Shown here: one piece after another, positions 17,303 to 59,927 of the stretch
Layout of the letters: each line of letters starts with the position of its first letter
How positions within the stretch are numbered: the first letter of the stretch is position 1
Notes under the pieces: generated by a model
What the model was told of the DNA's origin: nothing
The model's input: only the letters and a program-made list of their open reading frames with translations
The model's database searches: none
Position numbers and translations under genes: made by a program
Origin: Gammaproteobacteria bacterium (ex Lamellibrachia satsuma)
GTDB lineage: Bacteria > Pseudomonadota > Gammaproteobacteria > Chromatiales > Chromatiaceae
Assembly (NCBI GenBank): GCA_019623805.1
Contig: CP053680.1
Coordinates: 4,224,423 to 4,288,422, forward strand
Length of the DNA: 64,000 nucleotides
Direction of reading: 5' to 3'

Positions 17303-17512
17303 TAAATCTCTTTTAAGCTCATAATATCAAACACTTCATCTCCTCCCATCGTCTATGCGGATGAAATGTATCTATTGATAACGAAAGTATAGTTCAAGAA
17401 AAAAACCTCCAAGGTCCCTAAAACCCTATGTTGAACAGCTAATTACCTACAAATGACGGGGTATCTGCCATGTCCATGGCGGATTAAACAAAGATTCTCT
17501 AAGCTAACCATT

Positions 17513-18394
17513 ATGTTAACGATACTTTTTATCGGTTCATTAAGTATCCAGTCACTGGTTACTCTGAAGGCGCTACTCAACTCCGGCCACAGTGTAGGAG
17601 TAATCGCCATAGCAGATTCCGCTGTGGGATTGAAAAAAGCATCTCTATCTACCCGGCCCTATATTCCGGTTTTATTGAAACATGCGAATGACTCCATCCT
17701 GAGTGTGGCCACAATACACGGCATCCCTGTGATACTCCTGGATCGCCAAGATACCGGAGAACGTTTACAACCCTATGCTTTGGATGTAGGAATCGTCTCC
17801 TGCTTTCCACACCAGTTGCAAAACAGCCTACTACAAATTCCAAGATTGGGTTGCTATAACCTGCACCCTTCCCTGCTGCCGCAATACCGTGGCCCATCAC
17901 CCCTTTTCTGGCAATTCAGAAATGGCGAATCGAAAATAGGGATAACTTTGCACAGAATGGTTCAGCTAATTGATGCCGGCCCTATTGTTGCCTGGGAGCA
18001 GGTGCCGGTGATTGACGGCATCTCCGAAACAGATCTGAAACGATTGTGCGCAACCGTTGGCAACGCATTGATTCAAACGCTGTTACAACAGTTGGAGTCG
18101 GGGAGCTTATGCCTGACCACCCAGGATGAGCAACAGGCAAGCTGTCACAGCTGGCCTGGGGAAGAGGATTTCCATATCACAACGGAGTGGTCGGCAAGGC
18201 GGGTCCACAATTTCATCTGTGGTACCCGGCATTGGGGGAATCCATATATCCTGCAACTCGGCAGACATCGTTTCTCAATTGTCTCAACGGAAGGGTTCTC
18301 CCGGCACACCCTGCCGGATAAAGACTACAAAGTGGACGGCATTTGGCTAAAGTTCAACTGCTATGATGGTTGTGTAACGGCACGAATTTGCTGA
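17513..18394 (+). CDS. 10-formyl-THF-dependent formyltransferase (Fmt-like)
   Basis: NLHPSLLPQYRGPSP, GITLHRM, DAGPI. Start set at ATG 17513. Confidence 0.85.
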   Translation: MLTILFIGSLSIQSLVTLKALLNSGHSVGVIAIADSAVGLKKASLSTRPYIPVLLKHANDSILSVATIHGIPVILLDRQDTGERLQPYALDVGIVSCFPHQLQNSLLQIPRLGCYNLHPSLLPQYRGPSPLFWQFRNGESKIGITLHRMVQLIDAGPIVAWEQVPVIDGISETDLKRLCATVGNALIQTLLQQLESGSLCLTTQDEQQASCHSWPGEEDFHITTEWSARRVHNFICGTRHWGNPYILQLGRHRFSIVSTEGFSRHTLPDKDYKVDGIWLKFNCYDGCVTARIC

Positions 18395-18451: not shown

Positions 18452-19507
18452 ATGCACAGCAATGCACCTGAACTCTACCGACTGATAGAGACAGTTCTAC
18501 AGGAGAGACTGGACAATGGCACAACCCGCTGCCACCTCTGCCCCTGGCGTTGCAAGATCAGCCATGGCCAGCGCGGCTTTTGTCAAGCCCATGTCAATCG
18601 AAACGGCACCCTCTACAATCTCTCCTACGGCATCCTCTCCGCCATCCATGTCAATCCGATAGAAGAGAAACCGGTACGACATTACCGGCCGGGCACCCAG
18701 GTCCTGTCAGTCGGCAGCTACGGCTGCAGTTTTCGTTGTGGCGGCTGCCATAACCTGGATATCTCCTGGGGCGTGACCGCGCTGGAAGACCTGGCCCGGG
18801 GCGAATCAACAGCCGCCTATGTTCGGCCCGAAGAGCTGGTCGGTATCGCCCTTCGACAGGGGGTTCAGGGCATCGCCTTCACCTATTCCGAACCGGCAGT
18901 CTGGCTGGAATATGTAATCGACGTATGTGAGCAAGCCCATCAGGCTGGTCTCTACACCGTCTACGTCTCGAACAGTTTCGTCACAGAAGAGGCGCTGGAG
19001 CTGGTTGCACCCCATCTCGACGTGCTCTGTTCCGACGTCAAGAGCCTGCACGATGACTTTTACCATGCCATCTGCCCTACCGCCAAGGTCAGCGAGATCC
19101 TCGCCACGATCGAGAGGGCGCAGGAACTGGGTATCCACGTCGAGACCCGCTCCAACCTGATCCCTGGCAGAAACGATGACCCTGATGAGTTGTATCGAAT
19201 CGCCTGCTGGGTGCGGGAACACCTGGGCGAGACCAGCCCCTGGCATATCACCAAATTCTTTCCTGCCTACAAGCTCAGCCATCTGCCGGAAACCCCGAAT
19301 AAAACCCTGTGGTCAGCCTATGAACAGGCCCAGCGTGCCGGGCTGAAAAATGTCTATGTCTACCCTGACAAGGGCTGCGACTGCGCAACAGAGAATCGTC
19401 CTCTAGACGACTATCTGGAGGGAGATGTGGGCGATCTCCAGACTGTGAAAAAATGCAGCGCAAACTGCTGCGGTAGTGAAGGTGTATTGTTGAGAAAATA
19501 TGAGTGA
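18452..19507 (+). CDS. Radical SAM enzyme, AmmeMemoRadiSam (AmrS)-like, with Cys-rich tail
   Basis: CHLCPWRC...C N-terminal cluster, PIEEKP, CSFRCGGC (CxxxCxxC), TYSEP, FFPAYKL; tail GCDC...CSANCCG. Confidence 0.85.
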   Translation: MHSNAPELYRLIETVLQERLDNGTTRCHLCPWRCKISHGQRGFCQAHVNRNGTLYNLSYGILSAIHVNPIEEKPVRHYRPGTQVLSVGSYGCSFRCGGCHNLDISWGVTALEDLARGESTAAYVRPEELVGIALRQGVQGIAFTYSEPAVWLEYVIDVCEQAHQAGLYTVYVSNSFVTEEALELVAPHLDVLCSDVKSLHDDFYHAICPTAKVSEILATIERAQELGIHVETRSNLIPGRNDDPDELYRIACWVREHLGETSPWHITKFFPAYKLSHLPETPNKTLWSAYEQAQRAGLKNVYVYPDKGCDCATENRPLDDYLEGDVGDLQTVKKCSANCCGSEGVLLRKYE

Positions 19508-19602
19508 AGCCACACACAATTCATAATTGAGAGAGCATTTTGAAACTGTCACTGTTATTTAATTTTTCAAGGATTCAGAATTTCTTTACGAGAACTGACA
19601 AT

Positions 19603-19890
19603 ATGCCAAAAATGGTCGACTGTGTTGTCCTGAAGCGACCTTCAGAGAGCCTCGACAAGCCACCGCACCCGGGAGAACTGGGGCAGCGTGTTTATCAGCA
19701 CGTCTCCAAAGAAGGTTGGAAGAAATGGCTGGAGCGTCTCACCACGATCATTAATGAAAACGGCTTGAGCACTGCCGATCCAAAGGATATACGCTTGATC
19801 GAAAGGCACATGGTGGGTTTTCTGTTTGGAGAAGGTGATATGGGTCAACTGCCCGCGGGATTTCGGGCCGGTGGTGGTGGTAAAAAATAG
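19603..19890 (+). CDS. yggX: Fe(II)-trafficking/oxidative-damage protection protein (YggX family)
   Basis: MVDCVVL...PGELGQRVYQHVSKEGW...IINENGL...FLF. Confidence 0.8.
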   Translation: MPKMVDCVVLKRPSESLDKPPHPGELGQRVYQHVSKEGWKKWLERLTTIINENGLSTADPKDIRLIERHMVGFLFGEGDMGQLPAGFRAGGGGKK

Positions 19891-19904
19891 TAAACAGTGG
19901 AACC

Positions 19905-21188
19905 TCAGCTGATACGCCAAACAGGATCGATCTTGAAACTGAGTATCTCATGTGCCTGAAGCAGTGCAGCTTCAGCCTGTTCAGGTGTATCGGCCTTGGA
20001 AAAGATAAATCCCAGATAGCTGGAACCTTCAGGCAGCGCCACCAGCTCATGCCCGACTGGAGCGATAATTCTGACCTCCTCCACATATCGAACCGCCTGA
20101 GCCACATCCACCCCGTTAAACTCTCTTAACATACCGGACCCTGGAATTGGGATCATCAATACGCCCGCCGCCCCTTTAATATGGACATCAGGCAATGGAA
20201 GACCCACTGCATTGGCAATCACCAAGCTCTCCAGAGCCTGGCCGGAAGCTATAGTGAAGAGATGCCCACATTCGCCACCAATCGTGCGGACCGCCACTTC
20301 CAGAATCCAAGCCTCATCTTCGCTGACTCGCAGCTCTGCATGTACAGGCCCCTCAACCAGTTCATAGGCTTCACAAGCTGAGGTAACACGTTCAAGAATA
20401 CGATGCTGCACATCAGAGCTAAGGCGTGAGGGGGTGGTGTAATAGGTCTCTTCAAAAAATGGTCCCACCATAGGATCAGGTTTATCGAACAGCGCCAGCA
20501 CACTGAGTTTGCCCTGGCAAAGAAAGCCCTCCAGAGCCACTTCGAAGCCGTCGATGTAGGCCTCGACCAGCAGATGGGAACGTTCGAAAAGATCTGCTTG
20601 GTTTGCGATGAGCGGGCGGATGCGTTCACAGGCGGTAAGAAACTCCGGCAGGTTGTTCGCGCGAATAACACCCCGACTGGCTGATAGATTGAGGGGTTTG
20701 ATCACACAGGGGAAGGGGAAACCTTCGATCTGGGTTACCAGATCATCAGCCAAAGAGATCAGTTGGTGCTGGGGAACCGGAATACCCGCTTGCCTCAGAC
20801 AATTCCTGGCCAGGTCTTTGCGTCGTGCAAGCCGGGATGAGTGGACAGAATTAAAGCTTAAACCCAATTTGCTTGCAGTCAGCGCTGCCAACTCCACGGC
20901 TGCGTCATCGGTCGCAATAACTCCATTATAAGAGACAGACCTTGCTGCACTGCAGATTACATCAAGTGCCTCTCCAGGATCATTCAAGTCGATATGTAAC
21001 CCTTCTGCCAACTCACGTACCAAGGAATGTTTACCAGGTGAGGCTATATCAATAGCCACTCCCATTTCCCTGGCAGCGTTAAGGTAGGCACTAATACGAT
21101 AACTCTGAGAAGGTGCAATCAGCAAAATCCGCGGTCGCGGGGCACGACTAATAACAATCAGGCACAACCTCCTCCAGCAGCACCGCAA
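19905..21188 (-). CDS. ATP-grasp ligase
   Basis: FPCVIKPLNLSASRGVIRA, LVEAYIDGFEVALEG, FEETYY, GPVHAELR, ILEVAVR. The true start is probably ~21167. Confidence 0.85.
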   Translation of the reverse strand: MRCCWRRLCLIVISRAPRPRILLIAPSQSYRISAYLNAAREMGVAIDIASPGKHSLVRELAEGLHIDLNDPGEALDVICSAARSVSYNGVIATDDAAVELAALTASKLGLSFNSVHSSRLARRKDLARNCLRQAGIPVPQHQLISLADDLVTQIEGFPFPCVIKPLNLSASRGVIRANNLPEFLTACERIRPLIANQADLFERSHLLVEAYIDGFEVALEGFLCQGKLSVLALFDKPDPMVGPFFEETYYTTPSRLSSDVQHRILERVTSACEAYELVEGPVHAELRVSEDEAWILEVAVRTIGGECGHLFTIASGQALESLVIANAVGLPLPDVHIKGAAGVLMIPIPGSGMLREFNGVDVAQAVRYVEEVRIIAPVGHELVALPEGSSYLGFIFSKADTPEQAEAALLQAHEILSFKIDPVWRIS

Positions 21189-46955: not shown

Positions 46956-49421
46956 TTGGACCTGACTATGGAGATTTCTGATCGCGAAGTCATTCTTCGA
47001 AAAATCGCCGAAGTCGAACAGCAAATTACCCTTCTCCGAAAGCAGCAAGAAGAATCTGAGACAACACTCAAATCACTGAGGGAATGCCTGGCACTAGGTG
47101 ACGACGAAACAACGCACAAACCAAAACATCCAGCAGAAGTTCCCGTTTTTACAACGACAAGCCTAACACCAGACGAGAAGGTCACCCTTTTTCTCCGCCT
47201 CTTTCAAGGCCGAGAGGATGTGTATCCAAAATTGTGGCAGAACCAAAAAACGGGCAAGAAGGGCTATTCGCCTGCCTGTTCGAATGAGTGGATTCGCGGA
47301 GTATGTGAGAAGCCCCGGGTAAAATGCGGTGAGTGCTCCAATCAGGCCTTCCTGCCGGTAACAACCGAGGTGATTCTGGACCATCTCCAGGGACGTCACA
47401 TCATTGGTGTATACCCTATGCTGAAGGACGATACCTGCCGGTTTATCGCAGCCGATTTTGACAAAGCAGCTTGGCGTGAAGACGTTATGGCTTTTACGGA
47501 AACCTGTCGGCGAGCAGACGTTCCTTATGCCATTGAGCGTTCCCGTTCTGGGAATGGTGCACACGTCTGGTTCTTTTTCAGCAATCTGGTTTCCGCAGCG
47601 ACAGCAAGGAAGATGGGCAGCTATTTTATTACGGAAACCATGGCCAGACGACATCAACTCAGCATGGCATCCTATGACCGGCTTTTCCCAAACCAGGATA
47701 CCTTACCCAATGGTGGCTTCGGCAATCTCATCGCTCTCCCGCTTCAATATCACCCGCGACAGAAAGACAATACCCTCTTTCTGAATGACGAGCTGGAGCC
47801 ATTTCCAGATCAGTGGGAATTCCTCGCATCGCTGGTTCCGATTCAGGTAGAGAAGGTTGAAAAGATCGCCATGGAAGCCACAACCTGTGGCCAGGTGACT
47901 GGTCTCCAGATTTCCATTACCGAGGAAGATGATGTTGATGCCAGCCCGTGGTTGAGGCCGCCCTCCCGAAAACCAAAGCACATTCCGATCACCGACCCCG
48001 TTCCACATCAGGTGCGAGGTATTTTATCCCAACGTTTTTACATCGAGAAAGCCGGCCTACCGTCGCCTTTGATCAATCAGATTCAACGGTTTGCCGCATT
48101 CCAGAATCCAGAATTCTACAAGAAACAAAATCTTCGACTTTCCACGGCACTGACTCCCCGCGTAATCTCCTGCGCTGAAGATCATGGAAAGCACATCAGT
48201 CTGCCGCGAGGGTGTCTCGACGACGTACGGGCATTGCTCCAGGAATACAAAAGCCACCTTGAGGTGGAAGATCTGAGAATCCTCGGCGATCCCGTGGATG
48301 TTAGCTTCTTCGGTGAATTGACCGATGCCCAGCACCATGCAGCGAAAGCCATACTCGAGCACGACAACGGCGTGATCGTGGCGCCACCTGGTTTTGGGAA
48401 AACCGTCCTTGGAACCTACCTGATCGCTGCGCGAATGTGCAGCACCTTGATCCTGGTGCATAGACAGCCGCTGTTGGAACAATGGAGATCACAGATCGGC
48501 ATCTTTCTTGACCGTGATGCAAAATCAATCGGTCAGATTGGTGGCGGGAAACGCAAGCTGACAGGGCAAGTCGACGTGGCCATGATTCAGAGCCTGTCCC
48601 GAAAAGACACCATGGACGACATCGTGGCCAAGTATGGGCAGGTTATCATCGATGAATGCCACCATCTGCCAGCTGTTTCGTTCGAACGAGTCCTCTCCGA
48701 GATAAAGGCACAATACGTTGTCGGGCTGACCGCTACACCGCAGCGCCGCGACGGACACCAGCCCATCACCCATATGCAGATCGGACCGATTCGATTCAGG
48801 GTCGATCCACGTAGTCAGTTAGCGCAACGCCCCTTCGAACATCGACTTGTAGTTAGGGAAACCGGCTTTGGGCCACCCATGCAGGCATCCGATATAACCA
48901 TTCAGGAACTCTACAGCCTGTTGATAGCCGATGAAAAGCGCAACGAGCGGATCATTGATGATGTGCTGCTGGCTATGGAAGAAGGTCGATCACCGATTCT
49001 GCTGACGGAACGCAAAAACCACCTTGAGGATCTCCATCAACGGTTAAAGGGCTTTGTCCGGCATATCGTCGTTCTGCAGGGAGGACAATCAGCAAAAGAA
49101 CGGCGCAAAGTCCAGGAACAACTCGCTTCTATTCCAATGGAAGAGGAGCGCCTCCTGCTGGCAACCGGAAGGTACATCGGAGAAGGATTCGACGATGCAC
49201 GCCTGGATACCCTGTTTCTTTCGCTACCGGTTTCGTGGAAAGGCACACTCGTGCAATATGCTGGGCGACTGCACAGGTTGCATCCTGGTAAGCGCGAAGT
49301 GCGTATTGTCGACTACGTTGATGGCAAGGTGCCAATGCTCGCAAGAATGTATGAAAAACGACGTGTCGGCTATCGCTTAATGGGATACCGAGAAGAGGAT
49401 AGCAGGACTTTCCTCGATTAG
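46956..49421 (+). CDS. AEP-primase-like (TOTE-type) domain fused to SF2 DEAD/DEAH (ResIII-like) helicase, intact
   Basis: CSNEW...C...C.EC Zn region; AADFD, ERSRSGNGAHVW, GNLIALP primase-like motifs; APPGFGKT, DECHH, LTATP, QYAGRLHR. Confidence 0.8.
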   Translation: MDLTMEISDREVILRKIAEVEQQITLLRKQQEESETTLKSLRECLALGDDETTHKPKHPAEVPVFTTTSLTPDEKVTLFLRLFQGREDVYPKLWQNQKTGKKGYSPACSNEWIRGVCEKPRVKCGECSNQAFLPVTTEVILDHLQGRHIIGVYPMLKDDTCRFIAADFDKAAWREDVMAFTETCRRADVPYAIERSRSGNGAHVWFFFSNLVSAATARKMGSYFITETMARRHQLSMASYDRLFPNQDTLPNGGFGNLIALPLQYHPRQKDNTLFLNDELEPFPDQWEFLASLVPIQVEKVEKIAMEATTCGQVTGLQISITEEDDVDASPWLRPPSRKPKHIPITDPVPHQVRGILSQRFYIEKAGLPSPLINQIQRFAAFQNPEFYKKQNLRLSTALTPRVISCAEDHGKHISLPRGCLDDVRALLQEYKSHLEVEDLRILGDPVDVSFFGELTDAQHHAAKAILEHDNGVIVAPPGFGKTVLGTYLIAARMCSTLILVHRQPLLEQWRSQIGIFLDRDAKSIGQIGGGKRKLTGQVDVAMIQSLSRKDTMDDIVAKYGQVIIDECHHLPAVSFERVLSEIKAQYVVGLTATPQRRDGHQPITHMQIGPIRFRVDPRSQLAQRPFEHRLVVRETGFGPPMQASDITIQELYSLLIADEKRNERIIDDVLLAMEEGRSPILLTERKNHLEDLHQRLKGFVRHIVVLQGGQSAKERRKVQEQLASIPMEEERLLLATGRYIGEGFDDARLDTLFLSLPVSWKGTLVQYAGRLHRLHPGKREVRIVDYVDGKVPMLARMYEKRRVGYRLMGYREEDSRTFLD

Positions 49422-49862: not shown

Positions 49863-49938
49863 TGGAGCGGGAAACGAGATTCGAACTCGCGACCCCAACC
49901 TTGGCAAGGTTGTGCTCTACCAGCTGAGCTATTCCCGC
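49863..49938 (-). tRNA. tRNA-Gly(GCC)
   Basis: GCGGGAATAGCTCAGCTGGTAGAGCACAACCTTGCCAAGGTTG...TCCA, 76 nt. Confidence 0.98.
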
Positions 49939-50051: not shown

Positions 50052-50489
50052 TCAGTAACGAAAACCCTCACGCACCGGCAGGGTAATAGTAACCAGGCTC
50101 TCACTTTCAACCCGTTTCATATTCTCCACATCTGCATCCCTGGGAATCGAAATACGTTGACTGAAACTGCTCGAACTGCGACTGTAACTGTAGCTACCCC
50201 GCTCATTGCTCCGTTCTGCCTCCTGGCTGGTATCATTACTGATCACCAGGAATCTTCCCTTCACATTCACCTGAACCGCTTGGGGATCGATGTTTTCGGT
50301 ATGGATCCTTACCACATACCCCGCTTCACTCCTGCTTTTCTCGACTCTCAACCGTTGAAAATGGCGAAAACTGGACGTTTGGTAAGGTGATCCCATGTAT
50401 CCCGGATATCCATAGAGCGGCTGGGCATTCGCCAGGAAGGCAAGACTCAGCAACACAGCCAAACTCAACATTGTCAGTAACCGTTTCAT
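50052..50489 (-). CDS. Hsp20/alpha-crystallin-domain protein with Sec signal peptide
   Basis: MKRLLTMLSLAVLLSLAFLANA; GYVVRI...VQVNVKGRFLVIS...FSQRISIPRDAD...LVTITLP. Confidence 0.75.
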   Translation of the reverse strand: MKRLLTMLSLAVLLSLAFLANAQPLYGYPGYMGSPYQTSSFRHFQRLRVEKSRSEAGYVVRIHTENIDPQAVQVNVKGRFLVISNDTSQEAERSNERGSYSYSRSSSSFSQRISIPRDADVENMKRVESESLVTITLPVREGFRY

Positions 50490-50492
50490 CTC

Positions 50493-52043
50493 TTACTCCT
50501 TTGCAGCCTCATGGCTAGAGCCAAAAGGTGCTGCATACTTCTCACTGTAGAACACTTCAAACTCTGCCCCATCTTTCCAGGCATCAGCGGACAATCCCGC
50601 CTTTCTCGCCAGATAGGTCAACGTCTGCTCCCGATTCCAGCCCTGCTCCACCGCAACCTCCGGAAGAAAAACTGCACTGCGCCCCTGTTTTTTAAAAATA
50701 ATACCCTGTTGGCCCACTTTGAAAGCTTCGAAGTGGGCAATGGGACGCGGAGGTGTCAATACACTCACCTCGATCTCAAGCCCCTCCAACTCTTCCGGGG
50801 TTACCGGCGGAAAGCGGCGATCCCGTACCGCTGCATTGCCGCCATTATTCAACACTGCCTGGAAGAGTGGGTCGCGTGGTCGAATATAGCCAATACAACC
50901 ACGCAACATACCGTCCTTTTTAAGGGTCACAAACGCCCCTGAAGGTCGCTCAAGCTCCGGTGGCAGATTGCGCAGCAACTGCTCACCTTCATGCTTGTCA
51001 TCCAGTACCGCACGCCTGATTCCGGCCACTGCAATCTGGTGCAATCTCTTGAGCTGCTCACTGCCCAGACGCCTGACTGAACCCTGGCTGCCAGCGATTG
51101 CTGTCGGAACATTCACTGCAATCACCACGTAGCTGACCGAATTTTCATAGTTGCCTGTCAGTTGGCCACTGGTCTTATAGGCCAGTGGCTCCAGTTCCGC
51201 CGAGACTGGCAACATGTGCAACAGCAGTGCAATGGGACGAAACCCACAGATGGTGATTCCGGTGCGCTGTTGATAGTCAAGAAACCCCTTTGCATCCCTC
51301 GCCACTATCCGCTCAATCGCCCCCCCATCAAGTTGCTGGATATTTGCAGGCGTCTCATCATTCAACGGAAACGGCGTATAGCCAAACCGTTTGCCATAGT
51401 GGGCGAAGTCGCTGGAAACCACCACCAGAGTCTGCTCATCCGCCAGTTCACGCAGCAGTTTTGCTGCCTGCGGGTAGGCCTCATCGTCCATCTGCCCCAC
51501 AAGTACCGGCACCAGTTTCCAACCCGGCTCCAGTACACGCTGCAGTAACGGCAGTTCAATTTCGATGCTGTGTTCCCGTTTGTGTGCCTTTGCATCTGCA
51601 CTGACAAGAGGCGATTTGCGCAACTGCTGTACTGCAACATGGTCAAGCGGCACTGAGCCTAGCGGAGTCTGGTAGGCAGCTACATCTGCAATAGAGAGTC
51701 CTTTGAAGGCGCTGTAGTGGCTGGGCGCCAGCAACAGAACCCGTTTGTAATCCATGCCTCGCACCAACTTGAAGGCTTTGGCTGCGGTTGGCCCGCTGTA
51801 CATATAACCGGCATGGGGAACGATCAGCGCCCGGAGAGGATTTTTCGCCTTGGACTGGGCATCGGAAGGATCATCCAGAAAGCCGTCCACAACCTTGGAC
51901 AGCTGTAGCGGATTCACCGGATACCAGGAGCCTGCAAGCACACTCTCCCTGATCTTTTCACCCGCAAGGGACTGGGATATCAGCAACAGCCCCGCCAGCA
52001 AAAGCGCGGAAATTACCCATCGCTGAAATCGACCGAGTCTCAT
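50493..52043 (-). CDS. Memo (AmrB)-AMMECR1 (AmrA) fusion with N-terminal signal peptide
   Basis: AGSWYP, PHAGYMYSG, EHSIEIELP, SSDFAHYG, TICG (Memo); GAFVTL, LRGCIG, DRRFPPV, FLPEVA (AMMECR1). Confidence 0.9.
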   Translation of the reverse strand: MRLGRFQRWVISALLLAGLLLISQSLAGEKIRESVLAGSWYPVNPLQLSKVVDGFLDDPSDAQSKAKNPLRALIVPHAGYMYSGPTAAKAFKLVRGMDYKRVLLLAPSHYSAFKGLSIADVAAYQTPLGSVPLDHVAVQQLRKSPLVSADAKAHKREHSIEIELPLLQRVLEPGWKLVPVLVGQMDDEAYPQAAKLLRELADEQTLVVVSSDFAHYGKRFGYTPFPLNDETPANIQQLDGGAIERIVARDAKGFLDYQQRTGITICGFRPIALLLHMLPVSAELEPLAYKTSGQLTGNYENSVSYVVIAVNVPTAIAGSQGSVRRLGSEQLKRLHQIAVAGIRRAVLDDKHEGEQLLRNLPPELERPSGAFVTLKKDGMLRGCIGYIRPRDPLFQAVLNNGGNAAVRDRRFPPVTPEELEGLEIEVSVLTPPRPIAHFEAFKVGQQGIIFKKQGRSAVFLPEVAVEQGWNREQTLTYLARKAGLSADAWKDGAEFEVFYSEKYAAPFGSSHEAAKE

Positions 52044-52054
52044 TCTTCTCTCCT

Positions 52055-52231
52055 CTATTCGTCCTCTCCCCTGGGCCGATAGTAGTCCGCTTCACGCATG
52101 GCCATTTTCTCCTCCCGCGTGCTTCCTACCGCCCAAGGGAGGGCCATCACTCCTGCAATCATACCGCCCAGTACTCCCAGAAAACGCCTGCGAGAGTGCC
52201 CGTTGCGTCTCCACACCTCCCTCATCCTCAT
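52055..52231 (-). CDS. 58-aa twin-arginine (Tat) signal peptide protein, absent from the ORF track
   Basis: MRMREVWRRNGHSRRRFLGVLGGMIAGVMALPWAVGSTREEKMAMREADYYRPRGEDE*; TAATG overlap with the radical SAM stop; fills the gap to the RBS of the next gene. Confidence 0.75.
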   Translation of the reverse strand: MRMREVWRRNGHSRRRFLGVLGGMIAGVMALPWAVGSTREEKMAMREADYYRPRGEDE

Positions 52232-53208
52232 TACCAGACTCCCGGAACCGGCTCATTGCAGGTCGGACAACGACCGTCGCTGGTCAGTTTGTATTCACTG
52301 ATCATGAAACCCTCTCTCTTGATCAATAGAGTGCCATCGACCGGACAGTAGGTTGAATTACCTTTATGCCCTGAGATATTGCCGATATAAACATATTCCA
52401 ATCCCGCATCCATCGCCTCCTGACGCGCACGATCCAGGGTCTCTCCCGGCGTCGGCGGCAGGTTGCGCATCCGGTACATGGGATGAAAGCGGCTGAAATG
52501 GAGGGGAGTGCCTTCTCCCAGCTCACGCCTGATCCACTTCGCCATGCGCCGGATCATGGAGAGATCATCGTTCAGCGTCGGGATAAGCAGGTTGGTCACC
52601 TCCAGCCAGACCTCCTCCTCCCGAAACGTCACCAGGGCATCCAATACCGGCTGCAGCGTTGCCCCGGTTGTTTTGCGGTAGAAGCCGTCGTCGAAGGCCT
52701 TCAGATCGGTGTTAGTGGCGTCGATCACTTTACAGAGACGGCGTAGAGGCTCAGTGTTGATATAGCCGGCAGTGATGAACACATTCTTCATCCCGGCCTC
52801 ATGAGCCAGGATACTGCTGTCATAGACATATTCGTAGAAGACCACCGGATCGGAGTAAGTATAGGCGATGCTTTCGCAGCCCTGATCTCTGGCCAGGTCG
52901 ATGAGATCCACGGGGTCAGCGTTGAAGATCTCCTCTATCTCCTCCCCACCGCTTTGGGAAAGTTGCCAGTTCTGGCAGTTAAGGCAGTGCAGGTTGCAGC
53001 CTGCCGTCGCAATGGAAAACACGGGTGAACCGGGATGAAAATGGTAGAGCGGTTTCTTCTCCATCGGGTCGATATGCATCGCGGAGGGCCGTCCGTAGGT
53101 GGAAGCCAGCAGTTTGCCACCAACATTGACCCGCACCCGGCAGTCACCAGCCCCTCCTTCGGGGATCACACACTTGCGCGGACAGAGTTCGCAAACCACC
53201 TCTCTCAT
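52231..53208 (-). CDS. amrS: AmmeMemoRadiSam radical SAM enzyme
   Basis: CELCPRKC...C, DPMEKKPLYHFHPG, GCNLHCLNCQN, TYSDP, FSRFHP. ATG 53208 follows a GGAGGA RBS with ATGA overlap. Confidence 0.92.
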   Translation of the reverse strand: MREVVCELCPRKCVIPEGGAGDCRVRVNVGGKLLASTYGRPSAMHIDPMEKKPLYHFHPGSPVFSIATAGCNLHCLNCQNWQLSQSGGEEIEEIFNADPVDLIDLARDQGCESIAYTYSDPVVFYEYVYDSSILAHEAGMKNVFITAGYINTEPLRRLCKVIDATNTDLKAFDDGFYRKTTGATLQPVLDALVTFREEEVWLEVTNLLIPTLNDDLSMIRRMAKWIRRELGEGTPLHFSRFHPMYRMRNLPPTPGETLDRARQEAMDAGLEYVYIGNISGHKGNSTYCPVDGTLLIKREGFMISEYKLTSDGRCPTCNEPVPGVW

Positions 53209-53471
53209 GGCGTTCCTCCGTGCTTGGGTAGCTGCAACTCCGCTGGTTTGGCGACATGGAACCACTCAGCTTCATGAGCACTCAACTTGCCGCTATCCAG
53301 TCTTTCTTGGAAGATTTCCATATCGATACGCCGCCAGCTTGAGCCAGTCATCTCCCCCTCTTGCTGCCCGACCAAAAACAACGCGATCACGACCAACGTC
53401 AGGCTCAACAGCCCGATGAGTCTGTAATCACTGCTATGCCAATGCCGGATCGCTTGTAACATGGAAATCAT
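53205..53471 (-). CDS. Small single-TM protein ending in LSAHEAEWF motif
   Basis: 88 aa, TM segment LIGLLSLTLVVIALFLVG; translationally coupled to amrS. Confidence 0.7.
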   Translation of the reverse strand: MISMLQAIRHWHSSDYRLIGLLSLTLVVIALFLVGQQEGEMTGSSWRRIDMEIFQERLDSGKLSAHEAEWFHVAKPAELQLPKHGGTP

Positions 53472-53541
53472 GGCCTAAATTTCCCGCTTTCTTCTAACAG
53501 TTTAGACAGAAACCAGTGGCCTGTGTTTTACCCGGTTACCG

Positions 53542-56500
53542 CTATCTCTCCTTCCCAAATCCACGGGGCTTGAGATGGGTATCCCTACCGGTAAGACAGC
53601 GGTTACAACGGATACAGTCGATGTCGAAGGTTTCCCGCACCCCGAGGTCACAATGGTTGAAACGGCGCTCCGGCGCCAGTCGCTGCAACAGGGCAAATTT
53701 ATTACCGAAGGCCAAAAACGCCCCCAGCGGGCAGAGATAACGACACCAAAAGCGGTAGTGAAAAAGCGCCCCCAGCATGACCAACAGCAGTATTCCAAGC
53801 ATCCATTCTGGCCAGTGCTCACCGAATACATACTGCATCGGATCGAATAGCGCCCAGGATGAATCACCGCTACCCCATACCACAATCAACAGCAAGCCGA
53901 GCAGCAGGTACTTCAAAAACCGCAGCCGGGAATCCAACGGGCGGCTGGCATAGCTGCGCAAGCCCAGCCGATGCCCGATTCGGGAGACAAACTCCTGCAA
54001 TGCCCCGAACGGACAGAGATAGCCGCACCAAACAGGACCAAACATCACTGTCGTAACAAGCGCAAATCCTATCAACAGCCAGTGTTGCGGATTATCGGCA
54101 ACAGAGGCGAAAAAACCCAGGCCCAAGTTGACCAGATCCACCTCAGTCACCTGACTGTTGAGCCAAAACCCAAGAACCATCAAGGCAGCGAACTGATAGA
54201 TTAATCTGCCGTTTTCACTGCCTGAAAGATAAACGGGAAAAAACAGCAGCAATAGTCCCACAGTCACCATAATCGCAGGAGAGTACCAAGCAGATTGTGC
54301 CTCCTCTTGTGATACGACTTGAGCAAAACTTTTGCCGAACGCGGTTTGCCCTGCCACATGAGCCGCCTGGTTGATCGATGCCAATGCCGCCTCACTGCTG
54401 ACGGTTGCTCCGGTGAGGGCATCAACACGGGAAAGTGATAATGATTCAGCCGAGAGATCTGTCCCTGCAAGACTGGTAAGCCAACCATCGATGCCGGAAA
54501 TATAGGAGGGGGTCTCATTGGAATCGATATAACGCACACCCCGTAATCGCCCCATTGCATCCACGGAGAGCAACAGATTGAGCGGTCCTGCAAATCCCAA
54601 CACATCCGGCGCTGCTGCCATTGAAGCCAGAGAGACAGTATCTGCCTGACCATCTGGAGCCGAGCCAATATAGTGAATGAATGGCATTTCCTTCAGTTCA
54701 AATACACTTGATTCACTGACTGCTGCCAGCAATTGATCGCTGAAGTGGAGTTGAGGCGCAGGTTTTATGACCTGCTGATACTGTGCCCAGGCAAGACTCA
54801 GCAACACGAGAAAAACCAGCCCCCATCCCAGATTGGGCCAGGGAAAGGCGTGTCTGCCCCTGAGGTGTAGTGGCGACATTCCTTGTGGCACTAATGCTGT
54901 AAACAGCAAAGGTAGAAGCATCAATAGGGTGAATATCGCCAGCAGATAGCTGCTCCATTCAATACCAAGCAGTGGCACCATCAAAGCCCCTGTCACCAAT
55001 CCGCCAACAGCACCACCCAGATTATCCGCCGCCTGGTTAATGCCACTACTACGCACCACCACCGCCTGCTCCAACTCGGTGATCTTCACTCCCAGCGGAA
55101 ATCCTGTACCCACCAGCAGGCCCAACAGCAGCGAGATCAGGGGGTAGCCCCACTCCTGCCAGCCAATCGCCAACTGACCAAGCCAATTCAACAGATGAGG
55201 TAGCACAACCAGAACGGCGGTCACCAGTATCAGCACGATCCCCAGGCGGAGGGCAGGACGATCGATACGAGCCAACAGACTGCCCGCCCCTGCCCCTAAC
55301 GCAAGACCTGTCATAAAAAGCCCATTGAGCAGGGCCACCCGCTCAAACATAAAGCCGACATGGGACTGGTAACTGAACAGCACGGCAAGCTGGGCGGCCA
55401 TCGCGACCAGTCCGAGTACGAAAAGGATTTGCATGGATACCTTGCGCAGACGACTGCTGCGTTGACCAGCCTCAAGTGAGGCGCGGAGCAGCCATAGCAG
55501 AAGAAACAGCAACATCGGCAGCAGATAAGCCCAGATTCCCACGCCGCGCAGTTGCTCCATCCAGTCGGCAAAGCCAGAGGCACTGAACTGGCCCCATAAC
55601 AGCATGTTCAGGTAGTAGGTAACAGGCTGTGCATCGCTGTTGCGCTCGCTACCGGGCTGCTCCAGCTGATCCCGCACAAAACGCACCTCATCATCCGGCA
55701 GGATCGTGTAGAAGACTTTCGCCGGAAACCGATGATCTTCGAGCGGAATATCAAGGTAACGCGATTCCAGCTCCGATGCCGATTCGGTCACCCGTCCGGC
55801 AGTGGTGGAAGCACAGAAGAGATAGTTGTCACCGGGTGCGACCGCGATATTTGGCAGCACCTCCCGCAGCGTGCGAAAGACCGATCCACTGAAACTGCGA
55901 ACTGTGCGCCCGAGATAGTTGGATGCACCGCTCACGCGGGTGCAAAACACCCCGTCCGGCCCGAGTTGATGCCGCACACCCTGATAGAACTCCGAGGTGA
56001 AATAGCGGTTGCTGTAGGCGCTGGAAGGCGTCGCATTAAGCACCAGCACCAGATTGTAGTTTTCGGCCGCCGACAGGCTGTTGATATAGCGTCGACCATC
56101 CATGAAGTGAAGTTGGACACGGGGATCGGCCAGTGCCTTGCGGCTCTGCTCCGGCAGAAAGGGCATGACTTTCCGGAAGGCCTGCTCATCCTCCTCCACC
56201 ACGTCGATTCGGGTGACCGGATAGTGCAACAGCTCCACCGCTAGGCCACTGGCAAATCCGCCGAGCAGTAGTATCCGTTTTGCACCTGCCGCCTGGGACA
56301 TAAGATAGGCAGCCTGCTGACGAATCTCTAGCGGCAAGGGAAAACTCTCTGTTACTTGGCCGTTATTCACCAGCGTCGTCTGTTCGCCAAAGCCCGCTAT
56401 AGCCAAATGCCCATAGCGAGTCTCCGTCGTATCGAACAACTCCAGGCCCGGCTGCAAGGTGGAAAAACGCAGGGTCTCCATATGCCGGTCGAGCCAGGGA

Positions 56501-57180
56501 CTGACGACAGGTAAAGCAATGATTACACCAAGAACTGCCAGCAGGATAGCTGGCCGACGTGATCCGGCGTTGCAGCGTTTTAATTTTAACGCTGTAACCG
56601 CCAGCAACAGGGTAGTCACCCCGAGCGTACCGGTGATTCCCAACCACTGTATAAAGACAAAGGTGAAGAGCACCCCACCCAGCAGAGCCCCCAGTGCATC
56701 TGCAATGTAGAGCCGGGATATATCCCTGACGTTTTCCTGATTCTCCCCACCACCGGCAAAATCCCGCAAGGCCTTGCAGGCCAGCGGAAAGGCGAAACCC
56801 AACAGCAGGCCGCCGGGGGCAACGATCAGAAAGAGGGAGAGAAAGAGCTCCCCCAGTGGTACGAATTCGCTGGCGGAGACATCCAACAGCAGACGCACAG
56901 TACGCAGCATCAACACCTGCAGGATCAGTACCAAAGGTAGCAGTAGCAACAGACGGCTGATCCAGGGTAGAGGATCCTGCACCATAGGCCGTTCCCGCCA
57001 ACGCACCACCAGCAGGGAACCCAGCGCCAACCAGAAGAGCCAGCTGCCAAAGAAGGCGCCCAGACTGACTTCGTTGCCGTAGAAGACCACCAGCCCCTCC
57101 CTGATCAGAAGAGCCTGCACGATCTGGGAATAGGCGCCCAGAATCAGGATGGCGAAAAAGACCCTGCGGCTGGTTGGCAT
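53542..57180 (-). CDS. Polytopic membrane fusion: spermidine-synthase-like SAM-fold, FMN-binding domain and NosR/NapH-like 4Fe-4S module
   Basis: Q-ALLIRE...FYGNE TM block; ILLLGG...IDVVEED...DGRRYI; second TM block; GFAGPL...ETPSY...DALTGATVSS; CGYLCPFG, CRYLCPLG, CIRCNRC. Confidence 0.85.
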   Translation of the reverse strand: MPTSRRVFFAILILGAYSQIVQALLIREGLVVFYGNEVSLGAFFGSWLFWLALGSLLVVRWRERPMVQDPLPWISRLLLLLPLVLILQVLMLRTVRLLLDVSASEFVPLGELFLSLFLIVAPGGLLLGFAFPLACKALRDFAGGGENQENVRDISRLYIADALGALLGGVLFTFVFIQWLGITGTLGVTTLLLAVTALKLKRCNAGSRRPAILLAVLGVIIALPVVSPWLDRHMETLRFSTLQPGLELFDTTETRYGHLAIAGFGEQTTLVNNGQVTESFPLPLEIRQQAAYLMSQAAGAKRILLLGGFASGLAVELLHYPVTRIDVVEEDEQAFRKVMPFLPEQSRKALADPRVQLHFMDGRRYINSLSAAENYNLVLVLNATPSSAYSNRYFTSEFYQGVRHQLGPDGVFCTRVSGASNYLGRTVRSFSGSVFRTLREVLPNIAVAPGDNYLFCASTTAGRVTESASELESRYLDIPLEDHRFPAKVFYTILPDDEVRFVRDQLEQPGSERNSDAQPVTYYLNMLLWGQFSASGFADWMEQLRGVGIWAYLLPMLLFLLLWLLRASLEAGQRSSRLRKVSMQILFVLGLVAMAAQLAVLFSYQSHVGFMFERVALLNGLFMTGLALGAGAGSLLARIDRPALRLGIVLILVTAVLVVLPHLLNWLGQLAIGWQEWGYPLISLLLGLLVGTGFPLGVKITELEQAVVVRSSGINQAADNLGGAVGGLVTGALMVPLLGIEWSSYLLAIFTLLMLLPLLFTALVPQGMSPLHLRGRHAFPWPNLGWGLVFLVLLSLAWAQYQQVIKPAPQLHFSDQLLAAVSESSVFELKEMPFIHYIGSAPDGQADTVSLASMAAAPDVLGFAGPLNLLLSVDAMGRLRGVRYIDSNETPSYISGIDGWLTSLAGTDLSAESLSLSRVDALTGATVSSEAALASINQAAHVAGQTAFGKSFAQVVSQEEAQSAWYSPAIMVTVGLLLLFFPVYLSGSENGRLIYQFAALMVLGFWLNSQVTEVDLVNLGLGFFASVADNPQHWLLIGFALVTTVMFGPVWCGYLCPFGALQEFVSRIGHRLGLRSYASRPLDSRLRFLKYLLLGLLLIVVWGSGDSSWALFDPMQYVFGEHWPEWMLGILLLVMLGALFHYRFWCRYLCPLGAFLAFGNKFALLQRLAPERRFNHCDLGVRETFDIDCIRCNRCLTGRDTHLKPRGFGKER

Positions 57181-57508: not shown

Positions 57509-58093
57509 TCACTCTTTTTCCAATTCACCCTCAACCACAATCTTGCCCATCAGACTTGGCCAGGCTGCACGCAGGTAGATGACCATCGACCAGAGCGTCA
57601 GAATCGCCGAGATATAGAGCAGAACAAAACCGACTGTATGGATCGGCAATCCCCATAAGTCTTGCTGAATAATCAGCAGCAGAATAGCCAGCATCTGAGC
57701 CGCAGTTTTGAATTTTCCGATGGCTGACACCGCCACCTGAGCTCGAGCCCCCAGTGCGGCCATCCACTCCCGCAGGGCCGATATGGTGATCTCTCGTCCG
57801 ATAATGATGGCGGCGGGAAGCGCCAGCCATGGGGTTGGTTCCGACTGCACCAGCAATAACAGGGCAACGGCTACCATCAGCTTGTCGGCGACCGGATCAA
57901 GAAATGCTCCAAAGGGTGACACCTGTCCCCAGCGACGGGCCAGAAATCCATCCAGCCAGTCTGTAACTGCTGCCAGAGCAAAAACAGCAGCGCAGCCTAT
58001 CCGCGCCCACTCAACCGGCAGATAGAAAATCAGCACAAAGACCGGTATCAGTACGATCCGCAGCAAAGTGAGAAGATTGGGGATGTTCCACAT
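57509..58093 (-). CDS. pgsA: CDP-diacylglycerol--glycerol-3-phosphate 3-phosphatidyltransferase
   Basis: NIPNLLTLLRI, TDWLDGFLARR, GAFLDPVADK. Start set at ATG 58093. Confidence 0.95.
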   Translation of the reverse strand: MWNIPNLLTLLRIVLIPVFVLIFYLPVEWARIGCAAVFALAAVTDWLDGFLARRWGQVSPFGAFLDPVADKLMVAVALLLLVQSEPTPWLALPAAIIIGREITISALREWMAALGARAQVAVSAIGKFKTAAQMLAILLLIIQQDLWGLPIHTVGFVLLYISAILTLWSMVIYLRAAWPSLMGKIVVEGELEKE

Positions 58094-58094
58094 A

Positions 58095-59927
58095 TTAATC
58101 TTCTCCATGAAAGGTCTGGTAAATCTGTTCTGCAAGCTTCTGGCTGACGCCTTCCACCCGCGATATATCCTCAATGCCGGCCCGGGCAAGCTCCTGCAGA
58201 CCACCGAACTGTCTCAGTAGCCTTTGGCGCCGCTTGGGGCCGATGCCGGGGATCTCCTCCAACACCGAGGTTCTGCGTTTACGCTCTCGACGCTGTCGAT
58301 GAGCGGTGATGGCGAAGCGGTGGGCCTCGTCCCGAATCTGCTGAACCAGATGCAGCGCGGGGGAGTCCGCAGGCAGTATAATCGGCGTACTGCTGCCTAA
58401 CAAGAAGAGCTGCTCCATTCCTGCTTTTCGATCCGGTCCCTTGGCCACGCCCACCAGAGTCAATCCGGAAACCCCCAACTCCCGCAGACTCTCCTCCACT
58501 ACGCTGATCTGCCCCCTGCCGCCGTCAATGAAGAGGATATCCGGTAGCGGCACCTCACCTTTTTTGATACGGGTGTAACGGCGTTCCAGCGCCTGCTGCA
58601 TGGCAGCATAGTCGTCTCCCGGTGTGACCCCCTCAATATTGAAACGACGATAGTCGGACTTCAGCGGCCCCTGCTCGTTGAACACCACGCAGGAGGCCAC
58701 AGTCAGTTCACCTCGGGTATGGCTGATGTCGAAACACTCCATGCGAGCAGGCACTTCCGGCAGATCCAGTGCCTGTTGCAGTGCTTCCAGCCGTCCCTCC
58801 ATATCGATACGGCTGGCTAACCGGGCCTTGAGCGCCAGCGCCGCATTGCCTTCGGCCATCCTGAGCCAGCGAACCCGCTCTCCTCTGACCCGGCTACTGA
58901 TACGCACTTTGTGTCCCGACTGATTACTTAACACCTCTTGCAGCAGGATCCTGTCCGTTGGTTCTTTATTGAGGATAATCTCGGAAGGCACCGGCTTGTC
59001 GAGATAGTATTGAGAAACAAACGCCGACAGCACACTGGCCTCATTGGCCCCGGATGGTATCCCGGGATAGAAACTCTTATTGCCCAGATTGCGTCCCGAG
59101 CGGATAAAAAAGACCTGCACACAGGCACTGCTTCCTGCCAGGGAGACCGCCACGATATCTAGATCACCGCCCTCCCCGCTGACATACTGGCGCTCCTGAA
59201 TACGCCGCAGCCGTTTGATCTGATCCCGGTAGATCGCCGCTTTTTCAAACGCCTGTGACTGTGAAGCTGACTCCATGCGCTCCACCAATTCGTCGATCAC
59301 ACGGTTGGCCTTGCCTTCCAGAAAAAGCACCGCATGTCGCACATCTCTGGCGTAGGTCTCTTCATCGACCAGATCGACGCAGGGGGCATCACACCGTTTG
59401 ATCTGATACTGCAGGCAGGGCCGGGAGCGATTGCGGAAGAAACTCTCTTCGCACTGACGCACGGAGAAGAGTTTTTGCAGAATCTGCAGTGTTTCGCGGG
59501 TCGAACCGGCGCTGGGATAGGGACCAAAATAGCGCCCCTTACCCACGCGGGCACCACGCCGAAAGCTCAGACGGGGAAACTTCTGATCAGTGGAGAGATG
59601 GATGTAGGGATAGCTCTTGTCGTCCCGCAGCAGAATGTTGTATTTGGGCTTCAGCGACTTGATCAGGTTGTTTTCCAGGATCAACGCTTCCGCTTCAGTA
59701 TGGGTCACCACCACCTCGATGCCCTCGATCTGGGAGACCATCAGCTGGATACGCCGGTTCAGAGAGCGGCTGAAGTAGCTGCTGACCCGCTTTTTCAGGT
59801 TCTTCGCTTTGCCGACATAAAGGAGCTTGTCATCCTGGCCCAACATCCGGTAGACACCGGGACGGGTGGTCAGTGTCGAGAGAAAAGTCTTGGCATCAAA
59901 GCCGGGGTTAGACGGTGTCTCACTCAT
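58095..59927 (-). CDS. uvrC: Excinuclease ABC subunit C
   Basis: PGVYRM, YVGKAKNL GIY-YIG; ECFDISH; RDEAHRFA; HhH GIGPKR. Confidence 0.97.
   Translation of the reverse strand: MSETPSNPGFDAKTFLSTLTTRPGVYRMLGQDDKLLYVGKAKNLKKRVSSYFSRSLNRRIQLMVSQIEGIEVVVTHTEAEALILENNLIKSLKPKYNILLRDDKSYPYIHLSTDQKFPRLSFRRGARVGKGRYFGPYPSAGSTRETLQILQKLFSVRQCEESFFRNRSRPCLQYQIKRCDAPCVDLVDEETYARDVRHAVLFLEGKANRVIDELVERMESASQSQAFEKAAIYRDQIKRLRRIQERQYVSGEGGDLDIVAVSLAGSSACVQVFFIRSGRNLGNKSFYPGIPSGANEASVLSAFVSQYYLDKPVPSEIILNKEPTDRILLQEVLSNQSGHKVRISSRVRGERVRWLRMAEGNAALALKARLASRIDMEGRLEALQQALDLPEVPARMECFDISHTRGELTVASCVVFNEQGPLKSDYRRFNIEGVTPGDDYAAMQQALERRYTRIKKGEVPLPDILFIDGGRGQISVVEESLRELGVSGLTLVGVAKGPDRKAGMEQLFLLGSSTPIILPADSPALHLVQQIRDEAHRFAITAHRQRRERKRRTSVLEEIPGIGPKRRQRLLRQFGGLQELARAGIEDISRVEGVSQKLAEQIYQTFHGED

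Follow-up and report, generated by a model that had tools for sequence, protein, structure and literature searches.

Here, we describe an operon in a 64,000-nt stretch of DNA (hereafter, the window) from Gammaproteobacteria bacterium (ex Lamellibrachia satsuma) (contig CP053680.1, positions 4,224,423–4,288,422). The operon encodes an apparently envelope-directed form of the AmmeMemoRadiSam system, that is, of Memo, AMMECR1, and the radical S-adenosylmethionine (SAM) enzyme AmrS. Coordinates are positions within the window, and all six open reading frames (ORFs) of the operon lie on the minus strand, where they occupy the interval between pgsA (57509–58204) and a tRNA-Gly gene (49863–49938); a tRNA-Cys gene also flanks the operon. 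The first ORF encodes a 1212-aa giant membrane fusion (53542–57180) with the Pfam domains Spermine_synth, FMN_bind, and two copies of Fer4_5. It is followed by an 88-aa protein with one transmembrane (TM) segment and no family match (small A, 53205–53471), the 325-aa radical SAM enzyme AmrS (52231–53208; TIGR04337, 398 bits), and a 58-aa protein, again with no family match, in which SRRRFL precedes a hydrophobic core (small B, 52055–52231). A 516-aa Memo-AMMECR1 fusion (AmrB-AmrA, 50493–52043; TIGR04336 and TIGR04335) and a 145-aa protein with a Pfam HSP20 domain (50052–50489) complete the operon.

From the giant gene to the Hsp20 gene, the intergenic gaps are 70, -4, -1, 11, and 3 nt, and ribosome-binding sites precede the starts of AmrS (GGAGG), Memo-AMMECR1, and Hsp20 (AGGAG for the latter two). 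The stop codon of small A overlaps the AmrS start at 53208 in the sequence ATGA, with the GGAGG 6 nt upstream. The start of small B in turn overlaps the AmrS stop by 1 nt, and small B is the only gene within the 188 nt between the end of AmrS and the start of Memo-AMMECR1. Because of the GGAGG site and the ATGA overlap, the most likely start of AmrS is the ATG at 53208 (MREVVCELCP), and the GTG at 53265 is less likely. The initial annotation of this DNA had proposed six tightly coupled minus-strand genes between pgsA and tRNA-Gly; all of the ORFs and their stated domains were recovered here, and of the coordinates only the radical SAM start was moved, from 53265. We also considered whether the split between small A and AmrS, with its 4-nt ATGA overlap, could be a frameshift artefact. 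This possibility was rejected because the called gene coordinates in loci L085, L086, L088, and L089 fit the same ATGA overlap, and their small A proteins are 39–90% identical to that of the window.

TM segments or export signals had been reported for five of the six products. Called here from hydropathy, motifs, and conservation, they hold by hydropathy in all five cases and, for Memo-AMMECR1, by conservation as well. The Memo domain of this fusion scores 230.6 bits against TIGR04336 (cut-off 26) and the AMMECR1 domain 161 bits against TIGR04335 (cut-off 99). Matches in the PDB are MEMO1 (7kq8/3bcz, E = 6e-38) and AMMECR1 (1vaj, E = 1e-25); the Memo domain aligns to human MEMO1 over its full length, and the LRGCIG motif of AMMECR1 is retained. 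Residues 1–28 form a predicted Sec-type signal peptide with a predicted cleavage site between SLA and GE. Among the 120 closest homologues (53–90% identity), nearly all complete ones have an N-terminus of the same type, in which a positive n-region, a hydrophobic core, and an AxA-like site stand directly before RVRxSALAGxWYP; two of the homologues (P0020 and P0035) are annotated as Sedimenticola. As judged from sequence, these conserved signals bear out the earlier proposal that the system is directed to the envelope.

The core of the operon comprises five genes, namely those for the giant protein, the ~85-aa TM protein, AmrS, the ~60-aa Tat-like protein (Tat: twin-arginine translocation), and the signal-bearing Memo-AMMECR1. 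The same core was found in other Gammaproteobacteria in unrelated chromosomal surroundings (L085, L086, L088, L089, L090, L092, and L099), with giant proteins of 1212–1321 aa, small A proteins of 82–93 aa, and small B proteins of 58–73 aa in the relatives. Further afield, linkage of AmrS and Memo-AMMECR1 to a polytopic membrane SpeE-like protein extends to Planctomycetota, Verrucomicrobiota, Acidobacteriota, Omnitrophota, and others, with the gene order varying. In a survey of 76 Memo-AMMECR1 fusion loci from many phyla, a SpeE-like membrane partner was detected beside 24 of 49 signal-bearing and 0 of 27 signal-less Memo-AMMECR1 genes (Fisher p = 1.8e-6), the signal calls in this comparison being heuristic and at least two of the signal-bearing entries (L022 and L039) probably being cytoplasmic forms. 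The giant protein with all five of its modules is rare: it is present in 7/7 genomes of the window's genus, but in 12/121 genomes sampled across the order and in 2/301 sampled across the class. Collectively, the conserved signals and the synteny seen elsewhere support the view that the operon is one conserved system, as had been proposed, rather than a chance neighborhood.

All three families of the AmmeMemoRadiSam trio (TIGR04335, TIGR04336, and TIGR04337) are thus adjacent here and score above their curated cut-offs, and the Cys clusters of AmrS are kept. The canonical system is cytoplasmic, has neither signals nor a membrane partner, and is present as one copy in this genome, next to hypF. 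By contrast, the operon in the window has a Sec-type signal on Memo-AMMECR1, an N-terminally truncated AmrS, two small putative strand-donor proteins, and the added 1212-aa membrane protein. The apparently exported form is a variant of a known but uncharacterized system. Burroughs et al. (2019, JBC) reportedly tie Memo to 'nucleotide base and aliphatic isoprenoid modification'. No publication describing the exported variant was found in a literature search, which did not reach that study.

The signal-bearing fusion was also observed on its own. At locus L012 (record: Akkermansia muciniphila), a signal-bearing Memo-AMMECR1 is present, and neither AmrS nor a membrane partner was found within 13.9 kb (10 kb upstream and ~2.3 kb downstream); several loci from Kiritimatiellia, Lentisphaeria, and Verrucomicrobia likewise have a signal-bearing fusion with no linked AmrS or membrane partner. 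The exported Memo-AMMECR1 may also work without a linked AmrS.

Architecture of the giant membrane protein

Pfam and NCBIfam searches place Spermine_synth at residues 297–415 and FMN_bind at residues 862–940 of the giant protein, together with the two Fer4_5 domains, and at least 293 homologues (51–94% identity) carry the same three Pfam domains. Among named homologues the closest, at 92% identity, carries the annotation 'endosymbiont of Lamellibrachia barhami'. In one genome (G419) the protein is encoded by two genes, split at residue 815/816, that is, between a part related to the major facilitator superfamily (MFS) and SpeE and a NosR-like part. An AlphaFold2 (AF2) model of residues 13–1212 has a pLDDT of 84.6 and a pTM of 0.81.

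Five modules can be recognized along the chain, all encoded on the minus strand. Residues 1–229 (56494–57180) contain seven predicted TM helices, interpreted as a 6-TM MFS-like half and one TM helix that crosses outward. Residues 230–551 (55528–56493) form a SpeE-fold domain that appears catalytically disabled and is predicted to be periplasmic. Residues 552–801 (54778–55527) would provide a return TM helix, a second 6-TM MFS-like half, and a TM helix leading out to the FMN domain. Residues 802–968 (54277–54777) hold FMN_bind with the flavinylation motif DALTGAT, predicted to face outward, and give RnfG/NosR-like matches. Finally, residues 969–1212 (53545–54276) resemble NapH/NosR in having a five-TM module with two CxxxCP motifs and a Cys-rich 4Fe-4S tail that is predicted to be cytoplasmic.

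Loops rich and poor in Lys and Arg alternate along the protein when averaged over 64 homologues, and the C-terminal Fe-S tail is Lys/Arg-rich. This pattern fits a topology in which the N-terminus is inside and is followed by 6+1 TM helices, the SpeE-like domain outside, 1+6+1 TM helices, FMN_bind outside, five TM helices, and the Fe-S tail inside. With this 7 + SpeE + 8 + FMN + 5 TM model, the mean loop content of Lys plus Arg is 17.6 on the predicted inside and 1.6 on the outside; an alternative topology with the SpeE-like domain inside gives ~9.4 versus 9.8, and hence no bias, the totals being partly counted by hand and the sidedness of the SpeE-like domain resting on this charge bias together with MFS logic. 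The TM count fits an MFS-like 6+1/1+6+1 arrangement, and the MFS similarity of both 6-TM blocks is weak. NCBIfam NF037959 ('fused MFS/spermidine synthase') matches residues 71–223 with 39.4 bits against a cut-off of 40. In a homologue (P0133), the region of the return TM helix and second 6-TM block matches positions 6–217 of MFS_1 (E = 8e-6, 25.4 bits, cut-off 33.4), and isolated TM fragments of the window protein gave no match in Pfam.

When the AF2 model was compared by Foldseek, all of the matches listed were to SpeE, with a TM-score normalized to the target of ~0.7 and a complete SpeE fold. The giant protein shares with SpeE and NF037959 this complete fold, the ribose-binding Glu, the adenine-binding Asp-Gly, and a polytopic N-terminal membrane region, but it scores below every SpeE equivalog cut-off and its domain is predicted to be extracytoplasmic. 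Relative to PDB 6qmm, GGGDGG is replaced by GGFASG and DGSDP by LNATP (LVLNATP), such that the Asp of GGGDGG and both catalytic Asp residues are gone. An aminopropyltransferase role is unlikely for this domain because its catalytic Asp residues are lost and its predicted position is extracytoplasmic; we take it to be a putative nucleoside-binding fold. The initial annotation had this SAM-fold domain perform a transfer coupled to the radical SAM reaction, a role that the lost Asp residues and the periplasmic topology speak against, and an active aminopropyl- or methyltransferase was likewise rejected because the catalytic residues are replaced.

The C-terminal half resembles the NosR/NapH conduits (PMC8238504), with which it shares an outward FMN_bind bearing D..(S/T)GA(T/S), TM helices with CxxxCP, and a cytoplasmic 4Fe-4S tail. 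Partial NosR, NapH, and RnfG models match, all far under their cut-offs: with 58.3 bits against NosR (NF046105, cut-off 1000) and 55.5 bits against NapH (TIGR02163, cut-off 213), the giant protein is neither NosR nor NapH by the families' own cut-offs. It also differs from both in being fused to the MFS/SpeE-like module and in its proposed client, a radical SAM enzyme. The match to Pfam FMN_bind reaches 38.5 bits, the flavinylation columns D..(S/T)GAT..S are (near-)invariant in the 64 homologues, and the Cys columns of the NapH/NosR-like module are invariant. The genome encodes two ApbE proteins and TatC. With its motif, its outward position between TM helices, and ApbE in the genome, the FMN_bind domain has the predicted features of an ApbE-flavinylated protein. 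A survey of flavinylated systems (PMC8238504) does not mention Memo, AMMECR1, or spermidine synthase in its main text and three supplementary files.

AmrS and its N-terminal strand

AmrS from the window scores 398.4 bits against TIGR04337 (cut-off 220) and retains CNLHCLNCQ and the auxiliary Cys residues. Cytoplasmic AmrS proteins have the N-terminus ...KYWHxLDDGRVQ-CxLCP. The window protein starts after this first strand; it is without the 'KYWHxLxDG' segment of the canonical paralogue in the same genome, and a signal of its own is also absent. AmrS from signal-type loci is usually extended at its N-terminus by a Tat signal (DRRSFLQCALASGAALG, NRRQFLQAAGAGA, and others) or a hydrophobic anchor and then a linker, and exported-type AmrS proteins carry (R/H/K)EAx[WYF][YF]xxL...C directly before the first Cys cluster.

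Both small proteins of the operon end in this strand motif (EAxW/Y-F/Y). Small A consists of a TM helix followed by ...GDLSxREAxW(Y/F)H..., and its tail, predicted to face outward, ends ...LSAHEAEWFH... in the window. Small B has RRRFL, a hydrophobic core, and then ...L(K/R)EAD(Y/F)YRP..., which read SRRRFLGVLGG... and ...MREADYYRP in the window; its Tat motif SRRRFLGVLGGMIAGVMAL is present and conserved. Small A is kept as a separate protein in L085, L086, L088, L089, L092, and L099, and forms the C-terminal end of the giant protein in L090, L008, L011, L013, and L067. The fused form, seen in Planctomycetota and elsewhere where the giant protein is complete, adds an extra TM helix and ...RLSDKEAEFYKK-stop, and AmrS there starts at (V)QC. 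Small B lies between AmrS and Memo-AMMECR1 in L085 (as an uncalled ORF), L086, L088, L089, L090, L004, and L013, and analogous Tat-like ORFs are present in L008 and L067. Every AmrS with a short N-terminus that we examined has an adjacent small Tat-like ORF.

Because sister lineages have the same elements fused to AmrS, small B appears to be a detached AmrS N-terminus. We suggest that small A and small B are both split-off pieces of it, one with a membrane tail and the other with a Tat signal, each including the first strand. In the AF2 model of a Tat-AmrS from L021 (pLDDT 93), EAEWYKKL is ordered beta structure (pLDDT 93–98) and the signal is disordered. In the AmrS tree, the cytoplasmic clade has 100/100 support, and the split-type proteins (window, L004, L013, L008, and L067) form one group (UFBoot 90, SH-aLRT 56, 92% of bootstrap trees) that is nested among signal-bearing AmrS, apart from the canonical cytoplasmic clade.

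Textbook RRxFL signals precede AmrS in L019, L020, L021, L030, L031, L034, and L035, and further loci with RRxFL before AmrS are L037, L040, L043, L048, L050, L052, and L065. When the window AmrS was searched against 1.8 billion representative proteins and the best 150 were examined, classical Tat signals were found on ~20 of these 150 homologues. Gene fusions were also found. Two proteins (P0253 and P0267) consist of an N-terminal anchor, FMN_bind (DxxSGAT), and AmrS, with no TM helix between the last two; two others (P0244 and P0264) have an anchor, FMN_bind, five NapH-type TM helices with two CxxxCP motifs, an extra TM helix, and AmrS, and P0270 places DsbD_2 ahead of this architecture. DsbD_2, a membrane domain for thiol electron transfer, is joined directly to AmrS in P0245 and P0254, and P0277 combines an anchor, AmrS, Memo, and AMMECR1. 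Flavinylation of such FMN_bind domains takes place outside the cytoplasm (PMC8238504), and the fusions would therefore put AmrS at the outer face of the membrane, adjacent to the flavin and in the compartment of Memo-AMMECR1. AmrS itself thus appears to be exported. The fusions of AmrS with FMN_bind, with the NosR-like TM module, and with DsbD_2 also agree with the earlier proposal of a functional link between the FMN/4Fe-4S module and AmrS.

In two further proteins (P0242 and P0247), AmrS is fused to an N-terminal signal and a beta-propeller (Reg_prop/PorZ-like) or a CBM_11 domain. Together with the DsbD_2 fusions, these point to additional settings outside the cytoplasm and to an alternative route for electrons, via thiols.

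The genome holds three AmrS-like genes. Besides the operon copy, the canonical, signal-less AmrS (G000:C1:4000880–4001926, L001; 644 bits) lies directly after hypF and before a signal-less Memo gene, and a solo copy is located in the window itself (18452–19507, plus strand), with 229 bits to TIGR04337 and no Memo or AMMECR1 neighbor. Genes for formyltransferase-like, YggX-type iron-trafficking, and ATP-grasp ligase proteins surround the solo copy (17453–18394 and 19540–21188), and an alignment showed that the C-terminal region of its product differs from those of the other two paralogues. Hydrogenase maturation also recurs as a context: in Thiohalocapsa (L084) the gene for the exported Memo-AMMECR1 is followed by one for HypC, a second such neighborhood beside that of the hypF-linked canonical AmrS.

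Where AmrS acts

With modest confidence, we favor the interpretation that the operon encodes an outward-facing AmmeMemoRadiSam variant with its own supply machinery, namely a small Tat carrier, a docking site, and a NosR-like wire. Small B would donate the missing strand, bind folded and Fe-S-loaded AmrS, and carry it through Tat by hitchhiking. Outside, AmrS would dock on the tail of small A, the equivalent of the giant protein C-terminus in other lineages, and docking would bring it beside the covalently bound FMN. A cytoplasmic donor would then feed electrons into the 4Fe-4S clusters, from which they would cross the membrane module to FMN and reach the AmrS cluster, with the FMN domain taking the place of the flavodoxin that serves cytoplasmic radical SAM enzymes. 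SAM might be supplied or held by the MFS core together with the SpeE-like domain that faces outward, or these might remove the adenosyl by-product; this is the weakest step, and we regard it as rather unlikely. Lastly, AmrS would act with the periplasmic Memo-AMMECR1 on a substrate located in the envelope. In its fullest form, the proposal is that of radical SAM chemistry outside the cytoplasm, in which AmrS travels through Tat on a 58-aa carrier, the giant protein provides low-potential electrons, SAM leaves through its MFS core and is held on the dead SpeE fold, and Memo/AMMECR1 work on an envelope substrate; we put this forward as a tentative possibility.

Two parts of this scheme have counterparts in known systems. 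In Tat hitchhiking, the Streptomyces tyrosinase MelC2 travels with its Tat-signal 'caddie' MelC1, and [NiFe]-hydrogenase large subunits travel on small subunits. As in these cases, a signal-less cofactor enzyme is encoded here beside, and translationally coupled to, a twin-arginine partner; the carrier differs in being merely 58 aa and, apparently, the detached N-terminus of the passenger itself. The second counterpart is that of the PFL-activase-type radical SAM enzymes, which are activated by flavodoxin. In family searches, AmrS is most similar outside its own family to glycyl-radical activases, and its proposed reductant is also an FMN protein, as the FMN_bind-AmrS fusions support. However, flavodoxin is soluble and cytoplasmic, whereas FMN here is predicted to be covalent, outward, and membrane-wired.

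Several points weigh against this outward-facing scheme. We know of no SAM pool, SAM exporter, or Fe-S assembly route outside the cytoplasm, nor of a close precedent for a hitchhiking carrier of ~6 kDa, and the required reduction potential would be very low for a flavin. The system is also present in genomes of Acidobacteriaceae, a typically aerobic family, although oxygen would be harmful to a radical SAM cluster exposed in this way. The same strand is offered by both small proteins, for which a hand-over between them is the sole account that we can give. In the AF2 model of the giant protein, DSSP assigns two very long helices where the topology model requires helical hairpins. In Thiohalocapsa (L084), the locus encodes Memo-AMMECR1 and the giant protein with no adjacent AmrS. 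Finally, AmrS N-termini that are Sec-like and lack the twin arginine occur in L026, L032, L036, L046, and L056 (loci from Planctomycetota and Omnitrophota) and in P0242 and P0247, and they count here because Sec export seems incompatible with a folded Fe-S enzyme.

In the main alternative, AmrS would be cytoplasmic, tethered to and reduced at the NapH-like 4Fe-4S end of the giant protein, and would modify small B or the Memo-AMMECR1 precursor before export, such that the products alone would be periplasmic. A comparable case would be QhpD, whose target, the small subunit of quinohemoprotein amine dehydrogenase, is modified before it is exported. The window AmrS indeed has no signal of its own and is translationally coupled to small B; SAM, Fe-S assembly, and low-potential donors are all cytoplasmic, and so is the Fe-S tail of the NapH-like module in our topology model. 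Nevertheless, orthologues of the same clade bear classical Tat signals, and P0253 and P0267 join AmrS behind an outward FMN_bind with no TM helix between. In L090, L008, L011, L013, and L067, moreover, the motif should lie outside because the small A tail comes one TM helix after the cytoplasmic Fe-S tail, and in the AF2 model of a full-length AmrS the shared motif is an ordered structural strand and no free peptide. We therefore consider a cytoplasmic AmrS improbable.

The same motif might instead mark small A and small B as precursor peptides, similar to those of RiPPs or peptide-derived cofactors. The aromatic pair in EA(D/E)(W/Y)(F/Y) would be modified by AmrS and then by Memo (LigB-fold) and AMMECR1, yielding either a modified peptide or a redox cofactor derived from one. 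The aromatic motif is conserved on both small proteins, AmrS is related to protein-acting PFL-activase-type enzymes, and Memo is a member of a ring-opening dioxygenase family. Radical SAM domains related to those of Memo-AMMECR1 systems have also been reported in peptide-processing systems (PMC7159879). By contrast, the motif is homologous to the N-terminal segment of full-length AmrS of every type, where it is predicted to be part of the fold, and many lineages have no free peptide and carry the motif solely in AmrS or as the tail of the giant protein; we regard a precursor-peptide role as quite improbable. Still less credible, indeed very improbable, is that the giant NosR-like protein serves some other periplasmic redox process and merely sits beside an AmmeMemoRadiSam cassette: the functions of the parts are unassigned, the giant fusion is as rare across the class as given above, and L084 has no adjacent AmrS, but the linkage persists across phyla despite rearranged gene order, the membrane partner occurs exclusively with signal-bearing Memo-AMMECR1, gene fusions join the electron-conduit module to AmrS, and some lineages carry small A as part of the giant protein.

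Memo and AMMECR1 are ancient and widespread proteins with links to human disease. To our knowledge, neither has an agreed biochemical function, and we know of none for their bacterial radical SAM partner. The operon offers experimental handles: its parts are separated by a membrane, the electron donor is encoded in the operon, and the docking strand is a separate small gene, and therefore localization, docking, and electron flow should each be testable by genetics and fractionation. If AmrS is periplasmic as we favor, the working view that radical SAM enzymes operate in the cytoplasm only would no longer hold, and SAM export, a process for which no description is known to us, would be implied. 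The Memo/AMMECR1 pair would then take part directly in radical chemistry on a substrate in the membrane or envelope, and the split N-terminal strand would be an unusual case in which a Tat signal has become an independent carrier. Were AmrS to remain in the cytoplasm, the operon would still represent an undescribed, membrane-wired form of the trio that extends across many phyla.

The Hsp20-like protein and a neighboring ORF

The last product of the operon (50052–50489) scores 33.3 bits against Pfam HSP20 (cut-off 20.8) and begins with a signal-like N-terminus, MKRLLTMLSLAVLLSLAFLANA. Homologues with a signal-bearing alpha-crystallin domain adjoin the system in L088, in L086/L087 (46% identity; L086 9700–10737), and in L085 (1171–1716). 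The gene was not found beside the system in L084, L089, L090, or other phyla, and we rejected Hsp20 as a core component since it was found in three gammaproteobacterial lineages only. The alpha-crystallin domain is shared with small heat-shock proteins, of which the Sec-type signal and the Tyr/Gly-rich N-terminal region seen here are atypical. Stretches rich in Tyr, Gly, and Pro include PLYGYPGYMGSPYQ and WTPYGYGPYQPV, and the protein from L086 has a long YG/P-rich tail. In its lineage, the Hsp20-like protein could be a chaperone, or else a client and candidate substrate of the system, and its Tyr-rich regions could be clients of a Memo-type enzyme.

Beyond the tRNA genes, an 821-aa ORF on the plus strand (46956–49421) has, by eye, a primase-like region followed by helicase motifs (GFGKT and DECHH).

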